Part shown: one piece after another, positions 11,777 to 18,716 of the stretch | Layout: every line of letters starts with the position of its first letter | How positions within the stretch are numbered: position 1 is the first letter of the stretch | NCBI GenBank assembly: GCA_043799385.1 | Contig: JAZDNV010000031.1 | Coordinates: forward strand, 1-57,910 | Direction of reading: 5' to 3' | Length of the DNA stretch: 57,910 nt | Origin: Candidatus Aenigmatarchaeota archaeon | GTDB taxonomy: Archaea > Aenigmatarchaeota > Aenigmatarchaeia > GW2011-AR5 | Notes under the pieces: model-generated | Told to the model about the DNA's origin: nothing | The model's database searches: none | What the model saw: the letters and a program-made list of their open reading frames with translations, nothing else | Position numbers and translations under genes: made by a program

Positions 11777-12454
11777 ATGATAAAGGCAGTTCTCTTTGAT
11801 TTGGACCAAACGCTCATAGACTTCATAGGGATGAAAAAAATCGCCTCTAAAAAGGCTGCTTTTTCCATGGTCAAGGCCGGCCTGAAGATGGACCGCGGCG
11901 ATGCAGGCGAAATGCTTTTTGATTTCTACATCAAAGAAGGCATAGAATCGAATACCGCTTTCACGAGATTCCTTAAAAAGCACGGAAGCATGGACCACAA
12001 AATTCTTGCCGCAGGCATAAATGCATACACAAAGGCAAAATACGAGAGCATGAGAACTTACCCAAAAGCCAGAATCGTTCTAAGAAGACTAAAGAAAAAA
12101 GGGCTGAAGCTTGGCATAATAACCGACGCACCGAAGCTGAAGGCATGGCAGCGACTGCATATGATGGGTATGGAGGATTTTTTTGATATAGTTGTAGCGT
12201 TTGACGACACCAGAAAAAAGAAACCGCACGGTTCGCCGTTCAGCGTTGCGGTCACTAAACTAAAAATAGCTCCATGCGAAATATTGTTCGTTGGCGACCA
12301 GCCGCAGCGCGACATCAGGGGCGCAAAAAAGGCAGGAATGATTACCGTACTCGCAGGATACGGAATACAGGAAAAATTCAGGAAGCATCTGAAGAGATTT
12401 AAGCCGGATTACACGATAAATAGTCTTGAGGAACTAGTAAGGCTGATAAAATGA
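11777..12454 (+). CDS. HAD-superfamily hydrolase (TIGR02253-like)
   Basis: FDLDQTL motif I, KKKPH, VGD...DI.GAK.AGM. Confidence 0.9.
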   Translation: MIKAVLFDLDQTLIDFIGMKKIASKKAAFSMVKAGLKMDRGDAGEMLFDFYIKEGIESNTAFTRFLKKHGSMDHKILAAGINAYTKAKYESMRTYPKARIVLRRLKKKGLKLGIITDAPKLKAWQRLHMMGMEDFFDIVVAFDDTRKKKPHGSPFSVAVTKLKIAPCEILFVGDQPQRDIRGAKKAGMITVLAGYGIQEKFRKHLKRFKPDYTINSLEELVRLIK

Positions 12455-13911
12455 AATTGTCATTCTACGGAGGCGTAAATGAGATAGGAGGAAACAAATT
12501 TCTGCTAGAGGACAAAGAAACGAAAATATTTCTGGATTTTGGAAAAAACTTCATGATAGAGAACCGGTTTTTCGATTTCCCGTTAGTCCAGCCGTTCTAC
12601 ATACCTGACCTGGAAAAGACTGGCGCGATACCGGCTATTTCCAGTCTTTACCGAGATGCGAACGCTCCGTACAGAAAAGCCGGAACAAAGCCGGTCGACG
12701 GCATATTGTTAACGCATGCGCACATGGACCACTACGGCTATATACCATTGATTCGCGGCGACGTGCCAATCTTTCTAGGCAAAGCAACAGTCGATATTAT
12801 TAATATAAGGAGCGAGACATATGCGGCAACGTGGGGAAGCAAAACAGGGCACATAAAGCACGTTGAAACTTTTCACAGTAACGACCTGAAAGAATGCAAG
12901 AATATATCATTCAAGCCCGTGCATGTCGACCATTCGATACCCGCGTCGTATGCGTATATAATCTACGGAACGAAGACAGTCGCATACACGGGCGATCTGC
13001 GCCTGCACGGATACAAAAAAGAATTGACGAAAGACTTCATCGCTGAACTTGAAAAAAACGAAGTCGATGTATTGCTGTGCGAAGGCACGAACATCGTGTC
13101 AGAGCGGGATGATTTGTTCCTGAAAAATTTCGAGCAGGAGTTAATGCGAAGAAAGCAGAACCCGCCCAAGAGAACTTTATTACCGTGCAAATCAGAGGAC
13201 GAGGTTCTTGAAAAAATGAAGGGCATCGTGAATGACATGCGCGGCCTTGTCATAATAGAGACGAACCCTGCGGACATAGACAGGATAAGGACAATATTCA
13301 ATGTCGCATCGCTGACGAAAAGAAAGCTTGTCCTCACGCCGAAGCAATCGTACCTTGTCCACGCGCTGGAGGCGATTGGCGACATAAAAGAGCTGCCAAA
13401 ACTTAATGATTTTTGCCTTTATCTTGACCGCGTGAGAAAGAGGCAGGGCGAGGAGTGGGAAGAAGCTTTCAACGAGTCCTATCGCCAGGATTACCAGCGG
13501 ACTATGATAGATAAGTGCAAGGACGTTTTGCACGACGAAGAAGGCAGGGAAGAATTGCGCAAGAACGGTGATGAATATATAATCTGCACGGACAATGCGA
13601 CGAAGCGTTTCCAGGAACTGAAGCCCACGAGCGGAACGTTTCCGTGCAACTACATATTGAGCAAGTCAGAGCCGTTCACAGAGGAGATGATGATTACTTT
13701 CGATAAGCTTCTGAACTGGCTGATAATATCCGGAATAACCGAATACCACCAGCTGCACGTTTCAGGTCATGCATCTAAAGATGATTTGAAGAAAATAATC
13801 GACGCCGCTAACCCGAAGACGATTATTCCAATCCACACGGAGCACCCAGAGCTCTTCAAGAAATTCGGCAACGTCAGGATACCGACAATGAACGGCATGA
13901 TGGAGATATAA
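12451..13911 (+). CDS. MBL-fold / beta-CASP ribonuclease (RNase J-like)
   Basis: GG..EIGGN, THAHMDHYG, VDHSIP, YTGDLR, HVSGHA, PIHTEH. Confidence 0.85.
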   Translation: MKLSFYGGVNEIGGNKFLLEDKETKIFLDFGKNFMIENRFFDFPLVQPFYIPDLEKTGAIPAISSLYRDANAPYRKAGTKPVDGILLTHAHMDHYGYIPLIRGDVPIFLGKATVDIINIRSETYAATWGSKTGHIKHVETFHSNDLKECKNISFKPVHVDHSIPASYAYIIYGTKTVAYTGDLRLHGYKKELTKDFIAELEKNEVDVLLCEGTNIVSERDDLFLKNFEQELMRRKQNPPKRTLLPCKSEDEVLEKMKGIVNDMRGLVIIETNPADIDRIRTIFNVASLTKRKLVLTPKQSYLVHALEAIGDIKELPKLNDFCLYLDRVRKRQGEEWEEAFNESYRQDYQRTMIDKCKDVLHDEEGREELRKNGDEYIICTDNATKRFQELKPTSGTFPCNYILSKSEPFTEEMMITFDKLLNWLIISGITEYHQLHVSGHASKDDLKKIIDAANPKTIIPIHTEHPELFKKFGNVRIPTMNGMMEI

Positions 13912-13932
13912 TCTTTAAATTCTTTTCTATGT

Positions 13933-14271
13933 ATGTGTATCGATATGTCGATTAACAGACATATACCGGAAATCGAGCTTGGCTTATTGCAGATGCAGAT
14001 TCTGTGGCTGCTCAACAAGAAAGGAACGCACGGCTACGAGCTGATGAAGCGATTGAGCGACCTAAAGACTACGAAAATCACGCAGGGAACATTATACCCG
14101 ACGTTGCAGCGATTGGAGGAACTAAAGTTAATCAAGAGCAGGGAGGACGATCGCAGAAAGGTTTACATCCTCACTGACAAAGGCAAGAAAACGATGAAAG
14201 ATTCATGTGCTGATTTCTGCAAGACTTTTCATGGCATATTCGAGGATTTCATATGCGGAAAATGTAGGTGA
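13933..14271 (+). CDS. PadR-family transcriptional regulator with 4-Cys C-terminal tail
   Basis: IL.LL...HGYEL...GTLYPTLQRLEE...RRKVY.LT.KG; ends CADFCKTFHGIFEDFICGKCR. Confidence 0.88.
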   Translation: MCIDMSINRHIPEIELGLLQMQILWLLNKKGTHGYELMKRLSDLKTTKITQGTLYPTLQRLEELKLIKSREDDRRKVYILTDKGKKTMKDSCADFCKTFHGIFEDFICGKCR

Positions 14272-14276
14272 TAAAA

Positions 14277-14321
14277 ATGAAAAAGAATAAATGTTGCTGC
14301 TGCTGTTGCTGTAAGTGCTAG
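14277..14321 (+). CDS. Poly-cysteine micro-ORF MKKNKCCCCCCCKC (14 aa)
   Basis: AGGTGA SD 5 nt upstream; mixed TGT/TGC codons; stop TAG overlaps the AGGTGA SD of the next ORF; below ORF-track cutoff. Confidence 0.75.
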   Translation: MKKNKCCCCCCCKC

Positions 14322-14329
14322 GTGATTAA

Positions 14330-14500
14330 ATGAAAAAAGGAATCGGCGGACCTGTGGATATACTGCATAGCATAGTGATAATTATAGTAGCGCTGTTCAT
14401 GATAAAACACGGCATCGACGGCAACGGGTTAGGCCCGATGTTTGTCATATTGTTTGCTTTGTTTCTATTGATACTTGAAGTAGGTGCTATATTCCTATGA
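14330..14500 (+). CDS. Small 2-TM membrane protein (56 aa)
   Basis: SD AGGTGA upstream; two hydrophobic segments; ATGA overlap with iscS start. Confidence 0.7.
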   Translation: MKKGIGGPVDILHSIVIIIVALFMIKHGIDGNGLGPMFVILFALFLLILEVGAIFL

Positions 14501-15651
14501 GAAGAATCTATCTCGACCATGCGGCAACGACTCCAGTGAGAAAAGAAGTTGTTGAGGCAATGAAACCTTTTTTTGACAAGAAATACGGCAACGCATCCTC
14601 GCTTCATCGTTTTGGCCAGGATGCAAAAATTGCTTTGGACGAATCCAGGCACACGATTGCAAAGTTTCTAGGCGCTGGCGATAATGAGGTCATATTCACA
14701 TCAGGCGGCACTGAATCAGATAATCTAGCTTTGATTGGAACAGCTTTCGCAAATCGCAGCAAAGGAAAGCACATAGTAACATCAAAAATCGAGCACCATG
14801 CGGTTCTGCACACGTGCCAGTGGCTGGAAAAGAACGGTTTCGCGGTTACATATCTGCCGGTCGATAGATACGGTTTTGTTGACGCAGGCGACGTAGAGAA
14901 GTCGCTAAGGGACGATACGATTCTCGTGTCGATAATGCACGCGAACAACGAAATCGGGACGATAGAGCCAATAGAAGAAATCGGCAGAATCTGCAACGAG
15001 CACAACGTCTGCTTCCATACAGACGCTGTGCAGAGCTTCGGCAAGATACCGATAAACATGAAATACATCAATCTGCTATCTGTGTCAGGACATAAGGTTT
15101 ACGGGCCGAAGGGAATCGGATTGCTTTTTATCAGAAACGGAACAAGAATCGAACCAATACTTCATGGTGGTGGCCACGAAAAAAAGATGCGCTCGGGAAC
15201 AGAAAATATTCCAGGCATCGTAGGCTTCAGCAAGGCGGTTGAACTCGCTGGCAAAGAAATGAAATTAGAGTCAGGTCGAGAGATAAAACTGAGAGATAAG
15301 CTGATAAAGAACGTATTAAAAATTGATAACGCCTACCTGAGTGGCCATCCGAAAAAGCGGTTGCCGAACAATGCAGGGTTCTGGTTCAAATTCATCGAGG
15401 GCGAGTCGCTCGTCCTGCAGTTGGATAGTTATGGCATCGCAGCGTCCACAGGCAGCGCGTGCTCATCGAAATCGCTCGAACCTTCACATGTGTTAAAAGC
15501 AATCGGATTGAAGCATGAAGAATGCCATGGTTCGTTGCGGATGACGCTTGGCCGGCAAAACACTAGCAAGGATATAGATTATACGCTGGATGTTTTACCA
15601 AAAGTCGTTGAAAAGCTGAGGCAGATATCTCCGTTCAAAAAGAGGTGGTAA
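14497..15651 (+). CDS. iscS: Cysteine desulfurase, group I (IscS/NifS)
   Basis: YLDHAATTP, SGHKVYGPKG (PLP Lys), STGSACSS (catalytic Cys). Confidence 0.96.
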   Translation: MRRIYLDHAATTPVRKEVVEAMKPFFDKKYGNASSLHRFGQDAKIALDESRHTIAKFLGAGDNEVIFTSGGTESDNLALIGTAFANRSKGKHIVTSKIEHHAVLHTCQWLEKNGFAVTYLPVDRYGFVDAGDVEKSLRDDTILVSIMHANNEIGTIEPIEEIGRICNEHNVCFHTDAVQSFGKIPINMKYINLLSVSGHKVYGPKGIGLLFIRNGTRIEPILHGGGHEKKMRSGTENIPGIVGFSKAVELAGKEMKLESGREIKLRDKLIKNVLKIDNAYLSGHPKKRLPNNAGFWFKFIEGESLVLQLDSYGIAASTGSACSSKSLEPSHVLKAIGLKHEECHGSLRMTLGRQNTSKDIDYTLDVLPKVVEKLRQISPFKKRW

Positions 15652-16103
15652 TTATGTATTCAAAAAAAGTCATGAATCTTTTCACGAAACCGCACAATCT
15701 CGGAAGAATAGAGAACGCGGACGGCGTCGGAAAAGTAGGCAATATTATATGCGGAGACGTCATGCACCTTTACATAAAAATAAAGAATAATAAAATCGCT
15801 GACATAAAATTCGAGACATTCGGCTGCGCGGCAGCGATTGCGACGAGCAGCATGATCACTGATATTGCAAAAGGCAAGACGATAGAAGAGGCAATAAAAA
15901 TCGGCAGGAAGGACGTTGCTGACAATCTAGGCGGTCTGCCACCGATAAAGATGCACTGCTCGAACTTGGCAGCAGATGCATTGCACGAGGCAATATACGA
16001 CTACATGTCTAAAAATAAGATAAAAATACCTAAGGAGCTCCAGAAAGAGCATGAAAGGATAAAAAAAGAATTGTATACGACCGAGCACAAGTACATGCGT
16101 TAG
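15645..16103 (+). CDS. iscU: Fe-S cluster scaffold IscU/NifU-N
   Basis: GNIICGDVM, FGCAAAIATSS, LPPIKMHCS. Confidence 0.95.
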   Translation: MVIMYSKKVMNLFTKPHNLGRIENADGVGKVGNIICGDVMHLYIKIKNNKIADIKFETFGCAAAIATSSMITDIAKGKTIEEAIKIGRKDVADNLGGLPPIKMHCSNLAADALHEAIYDYMSKNKIKIPKELQKEHERIKKELYTTEHKYMR

Positions 16104-17020
16104 TCCTTCATCTTTGATAAGTAATCAGCTGCGGCTAAAGCGGCTTTCGCTCCTTCGCCTGCTGCCACGATTATCTGCTTTTCAGGTATGTCAGTCACAT
16201 CGCCAGCCGCGAATATGCCCGGAACGCTGGTCATGTTCTCCTTGAACATCTCCGTGCATCGCGAAATCATTATCTCGTTCCTCTTGTTCTTTTTCACGAT
16301 TTTTGCGAATTCGACATTTGGTATTGTTCCAATTTCGATGAAGACGCCAGAAACCGCAATTTTTTCTCGTCTGCCTTTTTTTTCTATTTCTACAGCACTT
16401 ACGAATTTGTCGCCAATTATCTTGGTTATGTTGGTTTCGTTCAGTATCTTTACTTTGTCATTTTTTTTCGCTTTTTCAATCATAACGTTATCGGCGGTTA
16501 ATTTTTTCCATCTGTTAAGAAGATAAATCTTGTTCGCGATTTTTGTCAACTGCAGAACTGCGTCCAATGCCGAATTTCCGCTGCCAACGACCGCTACGTT
16601 TTTTTCAGTGAATAATGGCGCATCGCACGTTGCGCAGTGGGTTACGCCACGGCCGAGGAATTCTTTTTCGCCTGATATCTCTAATCTTCTAGGCTTTTTT
16701 CCCGAAGCGATTACCAGCGTTTTGCATTCGTACTTTCCTTTATCGGTTACTACAGTTATTATTTTGCCCTTTTTCTTTATGTCGACGACTTCATCATTCC
16801 TGATTTTTATTTTATAATACTCCAAGTGTTCCTGGAACTTCTTTACAAGTTCTGCGCCTGATACAAGATGATAGCCAAGGTAATTTTCGACATCAGAAGA
16901 AAGCAATGCCTGCCCGCCGACATCCTTGGATATAAGCAGAAAATCAATTTTTTTTCTTGCAAGGTAGATTGATGCGGTTAATCCTGCCGGTCCTGCTCCT
17001 ATTATTATCGCATCATGCAT
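16100..17020 (-). CDS. trxB: Thioredoxin reductase-like FAD oxidoreductase (TrxB/AhpF-C type; start moved to ATG 17020)
   Basis: IIIGAGPAGL, HCATCDAP redox pair, VGSGNSA, FAAGDVT. Confidence 0.9.
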   Translation of the reverse strand: MHDAIIIGAGPAGLTASIYLARKKIDFLLISKDVGGQALLSSDVENYLGYHLVSGAELVKKFQEHLEYYKIKIRNDEVVDIKKKGKIITVVTDKGKYECKTLVIASGKKPRRLEISGEKEFLGRGVTHCATCDAPLFTEKNVAVVGSGNSALDAVLQLTKIANKIYLLNRWKKLTADNVMIEKAKKNDKVKILNETNITKIIGDKFVSAVEIEKKGRREKIAVSGVFIEIGTIPNVEFAKIVKKNKRNEIMISRCTEMFKENMTSVPGIFAAGDVTDIPEKQIIVAAGEGAKAALAAADYLSKMKD

Positions 17021-17021
17021 A

Positions 17022-17459
17022 CTAACCACAAGTTCCGCAGCCGTCAGTACAGTTGCAACTTCCATACGTAGTTGTTGCGTTGCAATCAGCACACGTGCAC
17101 ACCTGCTCAACGCCAAATATACAACCTTCGGGGTCCGAAGGGTCGCAAGAGCCATGCACAACGATGTTATATACCCCGTTTGCTGCAAAAACCAGGCTCA
17201 GGATTAATGTAATCATGAAAAACCAAGAGATTGGCTCAAAATATTTGTACGTGAATTTTGCTAATTTCTGGCTCCTCATCATAAGCTTGCTGATTATCTT
17301 TGATTTCATCTTTTGGTCGAATTGCGTGTCACACTTCCTGAGCGTCATTCTTCTAAAAATGCATCGCGACGCTTCCTTGAAATAATTCCTATATTTTACA
17401 GAGAACAACCCTAGGAATCCGAATACTATCATGGCAACTACGCATATCATGTGAATCAC
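17022..17459 (-). CDS. Hypothetical membrane protein with Cys-rich C-terminus
   Basis: Two hydrophobic segments, C-terminal C..C..CTCADC..CNC..CGTC; tightly coupled between sufS and trxB. Confidence 0.7.
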   Translation of the reverse strand: MIHMICVVAMIVFGFLGLFSVKYRNYFKEASRCIFRRMTLRKCDTQFDQKMKSKIISKLMMRSQKLAKFTYKYFEPISWFFMITLILSLVFAANGVYNIVVHGSCDPSDPEGCIFGVEQVCTCADCNATTTYGSCNCTDGCGTCG

Positions 17460-18649
17460 TTCAGTTTAATAATTTTACTTATGGTATCATTAAATACCTT
17501 ACACTCCTCTTCTGTATTGTATAAATACAGAGAGACGCGGGCAGAACCGTCTATCTTATGTGCGTTGAACCAGGAATGAACGCAGTGCTGTCCGGAACGA
17601 ATCATTATGTTTGCAAGCTCGTCAAGCATCAATGCGATTTCATGGTATCCGATGCCGTTTATATTGAATGATGTTATGCCGCTTCGCATTTCGACTGATG
17701 GCCCGATTATATCTGCTATTCCGAACAAGGAATCGGTAATAATCGTATTCAGTCTTTGCTCGTGCTTCTCAACGTTGTCAAGACCTATCTTATCAAGGTA
17801 ATTCAGGGCTTCGGCCAGACCTATTGCTCCAGCATAATTCTGCAACCCGGCTTCGAATTTTTCAGGCGGCTCCAAAAGCTTGTGCGTTTCATAAGTCGAG
17901 CTGGATACGGTGTCGCCGCCGAGCATGAAAGTGCCAAGCGTTTCAAGCAATTCATGTTTGCCGTACAAACAGCCGATGCCAGAAGGCCCAAGCGCCTTGT
18001 GTCCGGAAAAAGCAAGAAAATCGCAATCCATCTTCTTTACATTCATCTTCTTGTGCGGCACGCTCTGTGCGCCATCCAGCATCACCAATGCGCCAAAGTC
18101 GTGTGCAATTTTTATTATATCCTCCGCTGGTATCGTATAGCCATCAAGATTGGACGTATGGACCATTGAAACTAGTTTTACGTTTTTGTTCATCTTACTC
18201 TCGAATTCTTCCATGTTAAACGTGTTGTCGCGATTAGAGAAGACTATCTCATGCCTTATCCCACGATTGGTGAGGACTTGCCATGGCAGCAGGTTTGAGT
18301 TGTGCTCCTTGTCTGTTGTCAGGACGATATCGCCGTTATGCAGGTTTAGCGAATTCGCGACAAGGTTTATGCCCTCAGTCGTGTTCCTTGTGAATACAAT
18401 CTCATTTGTTTTTGCGTTCAAGAATTTGGCTATGTTTTCCCGGGATTTCTCATATTTTTCTGTGACCAATGCGCCCAATCGATAGCTGCTGCGGGTGCAT
18501 ACCGGAAAGTTTTCATAGTATTCGTTCATCGCGTTTATTACCTGCTTTGGCCGCAGCGTCACGCAGGCGTTGTCAAAGTATATCAGCGGCTTTCCGTTCC
18601 TAACCTGCTGGAGCAGTGGAAAATCCTTTCTTATGTTATCTACGTTCAT
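17456..18649 (-). CDS. sufS: Cysteine desulfurase, group II (SufS/Csd)
   Basis: IRKDFPLL, YFDNA, FSGHK..GPSG, EKFEAG, RSGQHC. Confidence 0.92.
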   Translation of the reverse strand: MNVDNIRKDFPLLQQVRNGKPLIYFDNACVTLRPKQVINAMNEYYENFPVCTRSSYRLGALVTEKYEKSRENIAKFLNAKTNEIVFTRNTTEGINLVANSLNLHNGDIVLTTDKEHNSNLLPWQVLTNRGIRHEIVFSNRDNTFNMEEFESKMNKNVKLVSMVHTSNLDGYTIPAEDIIKIAHDFGALVMLDGAQSVPHKKMNVKKMDCDFLAFSGHKALGPSGIGCLYGKHELLETLGTFMLGGDTVSSSTYETHKLLEPPEKFEAGLQNYAGAIGLAEALNYLDKIGLDNVEKHEQRLNTIITDSLFGIADIIGPSVEMRSGITSFNINGIGYHEIALMLDELANIMIRSGQHCVHSWFNAHKIDGSARVSLYLYNTEEECKVFNDTISKIIKLK

Positions 18650-18716
18650 AACGGTCAATTAAAAATACCTTTGACCTAAAAGTTTTAAAATGCCTAGGTA
18701 TTTCCCATAGGATAAA

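Follow-up and report, generated by a model that had tools for sequence, protein, structure and literature searches.

We have analysed a stretch of 57,910 nucleotides (nt) on contig JAZDNV010000031.1 of a Candidatus Aenigmatarchaeota archaeon (assembly GCA_043799385.1), termed the window in the following, which contains an iron-sulfur (Fe-S) operon whose second cistron is a very short open reading frame (micro-ORF) dominated by cysteine codons. The genes of this operon are arranged in the order padR, micro-ORF, TM56 (found in part of the related loci), nifS/iscS and iscU (Table 1). The micro-ORF comprises 14 codons and a stop (atg aaa aag aat aaa TGT TGC TGC TGC TGT TGC TGT aag TGC tag), with eight of the 14 encoding cysteine. 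Seven of these form an uninterrupted run, in which variation is confined to third codon positions, and the eighth (14316–14318) adjoins the stop. Its Shine-Dalgarno (SD) sequence has a predicted duplex energy of −9.7 kcal/mol with a generic anti-SD, and the SD of the subsequent cistron starts 2 nt past the last Cys codon. The peptide had been singled out in a first-pass annotation, made from the sequence alone, as a candidate cysteine-sensing leader, and its description there, including the sequence, the eight cysteines in 14 residues, the third-position variation, both SDs, the overlap between stop and SD and the ATGA overlap further downstream, was confirmed in every detail.

Table 1. Features of the operon, its surroundings and related loci. 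Coordinates refer to the window or to the locus named (L numbers); aa, amino acids.
Feature	Locus	Coordinates	Strand	Remarks
padR	window	13945–14271	+	First cistron; 108-aa PadR-family winged-helix regulator, PF03551, E 4.8e-18
padR TATA box TTTAAAT	window	13914–13920	+	−31 to −25 from ATG, same offset in 21 related loci
Candidate PadR operator	window	13927–13962	+	cTATGTATat, ACCGAT, ATGTC, ACAT; spans transcription/translation start
Micro-ORF SD AGGTGA	window	14266–14271	+	5 nt before ATG; overlaps padR stop TGA (14269–14271)
Poly-Cys micro-ORF	window	14277–14321	+	MKKNKCCCCCCCKC, then stop; ATG at 14277, TAG at 14319–14321; evidence: direct reading, run statistics, homologues in same position, codon-position divergence
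Seven-Cys-codon run	window	14292–14312	+	TGT TGC TGC TGC TGT TGC TGT
Next-cistron SD AGGTGA	window	14320–14325	+	Overlaps micro-ORF stop TAG (14319–14321); duplex −9.9 kcal/mol
TM56	window	14330–14500	+	56-aa predicted two-helix membrane protein, topology from sequence only
Cysteine desulfurase (NifS/IscS type)	window	14497–15651	+	384 aa; PF00266, 1.2e-85
Fe-S scaffold (NifU/IscU type)	window	15654–16103	+	PF01592 (NifU_N), 1.3e-46; 2 nt past desulfurase stop
Micro-ORF peptide	L001			MKNVKKINRTDKKNADCCCCCCCNCSPCEC
Micro-ORF peptide	L002			MVKKIKSECCCCCCCSTCKC
Micro-ORF peptide	L082			MKKKMTNECCCCCCCCSACKC
Micro-ORF peptide	L169			MNKTKGCKCCCCCECSPCKC
Micro-ORF peptide	L162/163			MKKKKVTKGCMCCHCNPCEC
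Micro-ORF peptide, tail part	L161			..MRNLCPCCHCNPCKC
Micro-ORF peptide	L170/171			MAKTKKKEDKKSCCCCC
TM56 family	L001	923–1093
TM56 family	L164	1675–1842
TM56 family	L170	3395–3562
TM56 family	L090	1045–1230
TM56 family	L175–L179
Cys-rich ORF preceding sufC	L161	860–1683		sufC: TIGR01978, 222 bits
cysK	L170	5201–6100		TIGR01139, 376 bits
cysK	L171	5134–6033
121-aa helix-turn-helix-like protein	L090	1304–1669
121-aa helix-turn-helix-like protein	L175	2–250
121-aa helix-turn-helix-like protein	L176	1073–1438
121-aa helix-turn-helix-like protein	L177	413–778
58–61-aa Cys-rich ORF	L004	396–572
58–61-aa Cys-rich ORF	L083	1630–1815
58–61-aa Cys-rich ORF	L085
451-aa ORF	L084	2828–4183
451-aa ORF	L136
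Short Cys-rich ORF	L086	2344–2430	−	Divergent, upstream of padR
T7 run	window	14568–14574		72 nt into iscS (Pro-Phe-Phe codons)
HAD hydrolase	window	11777–12454
Metallo-beta-lactamase/RMMBL protein	window	12451–13911	+	486 aa
Thioredoxin-reductase-like flavoprotein	window	16100–17188	−
Cys-tailed membrane protein	window	17022–17459	−	145 aa; C-terminal tail ..CTCADCNATTTYGSCNCTDGCGTCG
SufS-type desulfurase	window	17456–18658	−

Five consecutive TGY codons occur a single time in the 57.9-kb window, at the micro-ORF, and in none of 100 dinucleotide-preserving shuffles of the same sequence. Among the SD-led short ORFs of the window, a Cys run is unique to the micro-ORF, and no other has a homopolymer run of any kind outside a longer ORF. 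Others of this kind would hint at a wider system of leader peptides, and a scan of the window for them revealed just a Leu5 (16969/16972) and a Lys4 run (22011), both inside longer ORFs, and thus no credible candidate.

For a comparison with relatives, a profile of the regulator was used to gather 80 loci from genomes (43 of archaeal relatives) and 80 from metagenomes, and 14 further loci were obtained by exact look-up of the closest homologues. In eight distinct loci, the window included, a Cys-rich micro-ORF is located 1–15 nt past the padR stop. All eight peptides start with a Lys-rich head and end on cysteine as final residue, and they contain between five and ten cysteines, equivalent to 29–57% of their residues, encoded by 26 TGT and 37 TGC codons (n=63). 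Consecutive cysteines form runs of 2–8, with 7–8 in a row in four of the loci and five in another two. A C-[SN]-[PTA]-C-[KE]-C-stop motif defines the C-terminus of six of the eight peptides. It is lost in the window and in L170, where the Cys run alone is kept, and in L161 and L162 the run has in turn shrunk to C-x-C-C-H-C. The resulting patterns include CxCCHCNPCxC and C7xCSPCxC, and Phe, Trp and Tyr are absent from all ATG-initiated forms. The ATG, the open Cys frame and the stop are kept throughout, and neither of the other two frames is open. In seven of the loci the micro-ORF is preceded, at a spacing of 5–9 nt, by a strong SD, for which duplex energies with the generic anti-SD range from −9.5 to −13.2 kcal/mol. 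In the eighth, L161, no SD is suitably placed for the ATG, and the SD is directly adjoined by a TTG in the same frame. A lack of conservation of the Cys run, its frame or its SD in relatives had been named beforehand among the results that would refute the proposal, and such conservation is found in these eight loci, with a strong SD in seven. The seven peptide forms of at least 20 amino acids that were looked up are all absent from a collection of 15 billion proteins (the forms of 14 and 17 amino acids being too short for look-up), hence the family is unannotated by any pipeline, as had been noted for the window.

The eight loci belong to a single subclade of the regulator tree, from Aenigmatarchaeota and Woesearchaeota, whose PadR proteins are at least 70% identical to that of the window. 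Within this subclade the micro-ORF is missing in L164, L167, L081/172, L086, L090 and L009, and its patchy presence suggests a history of one gain followed by several losses. The closest relative of the window padR, in L161 (83% identity), is followed by an ORF containing CPCCHCNPCKC that precedes sufC. In more distant relatives from Aenigmatarchaeota, Hydrothermarchaeota and Micrarchaeota, padR either abuts iscS-iscU or is followed by sufS about 3.3 kb further on. Other ORFs were observed around padR in related loci. In L084 and L136, a 451-residue ORF with repeated segments containing Trp and Tyr, which by eye resembles a PQQ-type beta-propeller, is located between padR and iscS, and in L086 a short ORF ending on KSTSCSCCCCQ, which may have arisen by chance, is oriented divergently upstream of padR.

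The mode of selection on the micro-ORF is evident from the divergence at different codon positions. In the Cys-rich tails of L161 and L162 (11 codons, 82% amino acid identity) and of L001 and L169 (14 codons, an identity of 0.79), divergence amounts in both cases to 0.14 at positions 1 and 2 and to 0.64 at position 3, and padR of the same two pairs shows values of 0.13–0.17 and 0.5–0.6, respectively. Codons for His, Asn, Ser and Pro within the tail are preserved despite synonymous changes. Between L002 and L082, which are 94% identical, divergence within the region as a whole peaks at the N-terminus of the peptide, and the Cys block is identical except for one extra TGT (seven compared to eight Cys). 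The frame of the micro-ORF relative to padR differs among loci. In light of this coding signature, the closure of the other frames and the varying frame relation, the micro-ORF is, as judged from its substitutions, an independent protein-coding ORF under purifying selection in the Cys frame, which bears out the earlier guess of selection on the peptide that was drawn from third positions in the window. An origin by chance or as microsatellite was rejected in view of its absence from shuffled sequences, the coding-type substitutions and the conserved SD, ATG and stop.

The same data make it highly improbable that the sequence functions as a nucleic acid element, be it as (UGY)n binding site of a protein, as DNA operator or as slippage-prone microsatellite, or that it encodes a C-terminal extension of PadR. 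The single TGT distinguishing L002 from L082 has the appearance of slippage, and in L002, L082 and L169 a single stop separates padR from a micro-ORF in the same frame. The micro-ORF is out of the padR frame in the window, L001, L162 and L170, however, which excludes a conserved fusion, and an extension by readthrough or frameshifting was rejected since the frame relation varies across loci. A nucleic acid element is also at odds with the retention of ATG, Cys frame and stop in all eight loci and of a strong SD at 5–9 nt in seven, with the broken alternative frames, with Cys codons that vary at third positions alone and with the conservation of the non-repeat codons for His, Pro, Ser and Asn at the amino acid level. 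Only slightly less improbable appears a lineage-specific micro-ORF that is translated and functionally neutral or decaying. Such an ORF would be expected to show the patchy distribution described above, with absence from the close relatives L164, L167, L081/L172, L086 and L090 and a copy in L161 that is devoid of a well-placed SD and ATG, but its Cys codons are kept across lineages that have diverged by about 50–60% at synonymous sites, where a neutral run of rare codons would decay, and its strong SD is retained in seven of eight loci.

The regulator preceding the micro-ORF has 133 homologues, many from organisms named Aenigmatarchaeota and occasionally Woesearchaeota, which identifies the window as DNA of a DPANN archaeon. 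In many archaeal loci its gene is linked to iscS-iscU or to suf genes. Its alignment identifies His6, Cys88, Cys104 and Cys107 as invariant residues, and in an AlphaFold2 model (pLDDT 83) the cysteines are placed on a long C-terminal helix. In the bacterial regulator IscR, the cluster is held by three Cys and one His, the same kinds of ligands as the invariant residues of PadR, which by analogy is a candidate for an archaeal autoregulator that senses Fe-S clusters. There is no SD ahead of padR (the anti-SD duplex amounting to about 0 to −4.8 kcal/mol) and a conserved TATA box is located 25–31 nt upstream of its start, a geometry that is characteristic of archaeal promoters, so that its mRNA would be leaderless or nearly so. 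Around the start site, boxes at −18 to −9, −6 to −1, +1 to +5 and +15 to +18 consist of columns of at least 80% identity in 21 loci, whose flanks have otherwise diverged. As candidate operator, these boxes suggest that the padR operon is probably autoregulated. With a leaderless padR lacking an SD, the SD of the micro-ORF would be the first SD-led entry site for ribosomes on the transcript. The proposed location as leader is thus valid insofar as the micro-ORF precedes the desulfurase chain; its place is that of a second cistron after padR and not the 5' end of the transcript.

Downstream of the micro-ORF, the genes of the window follow each other closely, with spacings of +5 nt between padR and micro-ORF, +8 to TM56, −4 between TM56 and iscS, where the TGA of the former overlaps the ATG of the latter at 14497 (ATGA), and +2 between iscS and iscU. 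The coupled chain into iscS that had been proposed is therefore found in the window. TM56 belongs to a family of 55–67 residues with invariant K3, G4, G6, G7, D10, G28, G31, P36, L49 and E50, and it has no match in Pfam or NCBIfam. A search with the single sequence returned only the protein itself, a profile search recovered ten relatives, and the contexts of these ten contain no further poly-Cys micro-ORF. TM56 is found repeatedly at a position immediately in front of NifS/IscS, whether or not padR and the poly-Cys ORF are present. The desulfurase, a class-V aminotransferase, scores best with the NifS-type model TIGR03402 (560.7 bits, cut-off 530.75) and the scaffold with the clostridial NifU-type model TIGR03419 (190.9 bits, cut-off 187.9). 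The initial assignment of iscS and iscU is thus correct with respect to desulfurase and scaffold, with NifS and clostridial NifU as best-scoring types.

Spacing and SD strength vary within the family. The distance between the micro-ORF stop and the next start is +8 in the window and L001, +5 in L170, +20 in L161 and +29 to +36 in L162, L169, L002 and L082, and it is thus within about 10 nt in the first three loci and exceeds this value in the other five. In the former, the next gene is TM56, in L161 it is sufC and in the remaining four it is iscS. The three loci combining micro-ORF and TM56 (window, L001 and L170) contain a weak SD at iscS (−5.9 to −6.6 kcal/mol), which in the window is also distant (−6.1 kcal/mol), and the SD of TM56 is weak or absent in L001 (−6.0 kcal/mol) and L170 (−2.4 kcal/mol). 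In L164, which has no micro-ORF, TM56 (−10.1 kcal/mol) and iscS (−8.6 kcal/mol) are each equipped with their own SD, and iscS carries its own strong SD in L002 and L082. In L170 and L171, a cysK gene located 20 nt past iscU forms the end of the operon, and at least this relative can, on the basis of its gene content, make cysteine.

Based on these features, we favour as explanation, with less than even confidence, that the micro-ORF acts in cis as a translational gate, which depends on Cys-tRNA and feeds the coupled chain of cistrons. The following account of its translation, of stalling and coupling and of the sign of the response is inferred. Ribosomes would load at the strong SD of the micro-ORF, where they would have to read eight Cys codons within 14, and terminate at a stop that overlaps the next SD. 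As the chain is tight and iscS devoid of a good SD, translation of TM56, iscS and iscU would largely be fed by ribosomes handed on from the micro-ORF through termination and reinitiation. With plentiful Cys-tRNA, ribosomes would pass through, whereas its scarcity would cause stalling or drop-off within the Cys run. Ribosomes stalled on the last Cys codons would cover the SD and start of TM56, fewer would be handed on, and the uncoupled RNA polymerase would be exposed to FttA-type polarity, such that less of the cysteine-consuming Fe-S machinery would be produced. A second input, at the promoter, would come from the PadR-type regulator. The gate would thus throttle the operon by loss of reinitiation, occlusion of the SD and FttA polarity.

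Several observations argue for such a gate. Five to eight identical rare codons in an SD-led ORF of 14–30 codons correspond to the layout of an amino acid leader peptide and are atypical of metal sites, and the Cys codons are fixed next to a hypervariable N-terminal half. The downstream genes are all related to cysteine or sulfur (NifS/IscS, SufC in L161 and cysK in L170), and the weak downstream SDs in loci with micro-ORF and TM56 are accompanied by a strong SD of the micro-ORF, whereas L164, without micro-ORF, has SDs of its own. In mycobacteria, polycysteine short ORFs sense cysteine via ribosome pausing (bioRxiv 10.1101/834739). In archaea, termination-reinitiation coupling works at short spacings, with little or none found beyond about 30 nt, and polarity was attributed to FttA (PMC12548453).

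Other features weigh against this reading. In four of the eight loci (L002, L082, L162 and L169), iscS starts 29–36 nt past the micro-ORF stop, and in L002 and L082, where such a spacer precedes an iscS with strong SD, coupling would be weak. The proposed link to an Fe-S desulfurase operon thus holds in the window, with coupling expected to be weak in L002 and L082 and with sufC as the next gene in L161. Conserved non-Cys residues (His, Asn/Ser and Pro) would be needless in a pure codon counter, the Cys run is reduced to C-x-C-C-H-C in L161 and L162 and the micro-ORF is the second and not the first cistron. In L170, cysK would be turned down upon Cys starvation, which is counter-intuitive. The presence of this gene in the operon of a relative also undercuts the assumption of the first-pass annotation that the organism is a likely cysteine scavenger, and regulation might run in either direction. 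Finally, our literature searches revealed no amino-acid-sensing leader ORF in archaea.

RNA structures that are conserved or of unusual stability are likewise missing between micro-ORF and next start, as is a U-tract terminator behind the micro-ORF. For minimum free energy folds of the segments from micro-ORF to next start in the eight loci, z-scores range from −1.9 to +1.7, and no helix is common to them. Most of the folds leave the downstream SD unpaired, with no duplex that would sequester it, and an Rfam search of window positions 13700–14700 gave no match. An RNA switch or attenuator was thus rejected. Runs of at least five T are absent within 55 nt after the micro-ORF stops (with the nearest at +55 in L170 and none before +100 in the other loci), and none is found between micro-ORF and iscS in the window, and for that reason a terminator behind the micro-ORF was rejected too. 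A run of seven T located inside iscS of the window could be an internal archaeal termination signal. Such U-tracts at the 5' end of iscS are not associated with the micro-ORF, and a conditional terminator formed by the run of 6–7 T was rejected since its length is unrelated to micro-ORF presence (mean 4.4 compared to 4.0 in 45 loci).

The residues that are superfluous for a codon counter direct attention to the peptide itself. About as likely as the gate, and possible without being probable, is a trans-acting micropeptide, in which a Lys-rich head is combined with a thiolate-rich tail that binds iron, fragments of Fe-S clusters, persulfide sulfur or another soft metal. It might serve as buffer, carrier or protectant together with the Fe-S assembly proteins and possibly with TM56. 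A thiolate-rich peptide had already been listed as alternative in the first-pass annotation, and the conserved His, Asn/Ser and Pro now favour a constraint at the peptide level. The tail diverges like a conserved protein, following the same pattern as padR, with His, Asn, Ser and Pro kept through synonymous changes, and the C-terminal motif in six and the terminal Cys in all eight peptides are equally compatible with this role. A micropeptide would fit all eight loci irrespective of spacer length and next gene (TM56, IscS or SufC), and the 5–8 nt between micro-ORF and TM56 in three loci are typical of partners in a complex (PMC12548453). In L004, L083 and L085, the slot between padR and iscS is filled by a different Cys-rich ORF of 58–61 residues (MRCMVCGSP...CSSCDNC..., nine Cys), which is annotated as hypothetical protein HLD49535.1. 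The lack of aromatic residues in ATG-initiated forms and the CC and CxC motifs are reminiscent of metallothioneins. Conversely, seven to eight consecutive cysteines are sterically poor for the chelation of a single metal ion, and runs of this kind are not known to us from metallothioneins. Nor is any prokaryotic metal-binding protein known to us as short as these peptides, with their 14–21 residues, would be. Their N-terminus diverges very fast, the forms of the window and L170 have lost the C-terminal motif and retain the run alone, and the peptides match neither a metallothionein nor any other family in Pfam (E up to 10) or NCBIfam (E up to 1).

The opposite extremes found in the run-only forms of the window and L170 and the motif-only forms of L161 and L162 could reflect a dual function as cysteine gauge in cis and thiolate peptide, or a shift in role between lineages. 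Intermediates containing both run and motif, and the tight coupling in some loci next to loose spacers in others, are in line with this proposal, which is less parsimonious and in our view unlikely.

The relation of the micro-ORF to described systems was compared in either respect. Mycobacterial polycysteine leaderless short ORFs of the Ms5788A type (Canestrari et al., bioRxiv 10.1101/834739) are likewise very short, contain consecutive Cys codons, precede operon genes of cysteine or sulfur metabolism and were missed by annotation pipelines. In the proposed mechanism, ribosome pausing on the Cys codons reports the charging of tRNA-Cys, which requires a leaderless first ORF and a duplex sequestering an SD that is opened by the ribosome paused in the Cys tract (bioRxiv 10.1101/834739). 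In contrast, the ORF described here, which is found in Archaea, is SD-led and follows a regulator gene as second cistron, its folds contain no duplex that would sequester an SD, and its Cys run extends over 5–8 instead of 2–4 residues. Its targets are for the most part consumers of cysteine (NifS/IscS, Suf) and not biosynthetic genes, and the predicted response would therefore have the opposite sign. The mycobacterial attenuator invoked in the first-pass annotation does not apply to an SD-led internal ORF that lacks a sequestering duplex, an Rfam family and a U-tract terminator.

The enterobacterial leaders hisL, pheL and thrL show a similar layout of 14–30 codons, in which a run of the sensed amino acid follows a short head that is basic or variable. 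They act by classical transcription attenuation, and hisL likewise contains seven cognate codons in a row. The archaeal micro-ORF is not part of a 5' leader and is not associated with alternative terminator and antiterminator hairpins or with a terminator, and termination in archaea proceeds via U-tracts and FttA and not via hairpins. Termination-reinitiation coupling (PMC12548453) operates at similar spacings as the −4 to +8 nt found from micro-ORF to iscU in the window, L001 and L170, although it was not described as an amino-acid-sensing device and four loci are spaced at 29–36 nt, a distance at which coupling is expected to be weak. With metallothioneins and phytochelatin-like peptides, the micro-ORF shares a very high Cys content, CC and CxC motifs, the lack of aromatic residues and variable non-Cys positions; it differs by the absence of a family match, its far shorter length, Cys7–8 runs that are foreign to metallothioneins and its location in an Fe-S assembly instead of a metal-stress operon. 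Finally, bacterial iscR-iscSUA operons also start with a gene for a small winged-helix regulator that is followed by desulfurase and scaffold, and the three Cys and one His of PadR and the candidate operator over its own start extend the likeness. The archaeal regulator belongs to the PadR and IscR to the Rrf2 family, cluster binding by PadR is putative and we know of no poly-Cys ORF in bacterial isc operons. Thus, by analogy, the principle of sensing would bring the micro-ORF closest to mycobacterial poly-Cys ORFs and to leaders of the hisL type, from which it departs in structure, whereas the architecture of termination-reinitiation is matched in part of the family only and the likeness to metallothioneins is compositional only. 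In line with the earlier claim that no archaeal equivalent is described, literature searches revealed neither a poly-Cys or Cys-rich short ORF near archaeal isc or suf genes nor a relevant archaeal metallothionein.

Additional genes surround the operon. Directly upstream of the padR promoter resides a gene for a metallo-beta-lactamase/RMMBL protein, resembling beta-CASP RNases, which overlaps a HAD hydrolase gene by 4 nt. Past iscU, the opposite strand encodes a thioredoxin-reductase-like flavoprotein and a SufS-type desulfurase, whose stop is overlapped by 4 nt by the gene of a membrane protein with Cys-rich C-terminal tail. The latter belongs to no Pfam or NCBIfam family, and in L082 a weakly similar homologue (25% identity) is encoded downstream of IscS. 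The window otherwise contains archaeal housekeeping genes such as those of aEF-1A, SepF, RNase HII, the SRP receptor and adenylate kinase. In loci without poly-Cys ORF, a helix-turn-helix-like protein of 121 residues with a C-terminal C-x2-C...C pattern (..LLCILCKKYNKGIIKICSMEP..) is found beside TM56 and IscS. It has no match in NCBIfam and may be a second regulator of Fe-S operons.

Amino-acid-sensing leader ORFs are a textbook device of bacteria with no established counterpart in archaea. It is possible, if rather doubtful, that the micro-ORF is the first archaeal ORF of the leader type that senses an amino acid, gating an Fe-S operon in the absence of an RNA switch and adding a cysteine input to a PadR-type autoregulator that would sense Fe-S clusters. 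If true, archaea would use the transit of ribosomes as metabolite sensor, with plain translational coupling or polarity being sufficient and RNA switches dispensable, and the genome-reduced DPANN archaea would possess a direct connection between the supply of cysteine and the biogenesis of Fe-S clusters. If instead the product is a thiolate peptide, its 14–21 residues would place it among the smallest metal- or sulfur-binding molecules made by ribosomes and it would define a new accessory factor of a minimal NifS/NifU-type system. Under either reading, the locus harbours a conserved gene family that is invisible to annotation pipelines, and its analysis has exposed a candidate Fe-S regulator of the PadR family with a sharply conserved promoter and a candidate operator.

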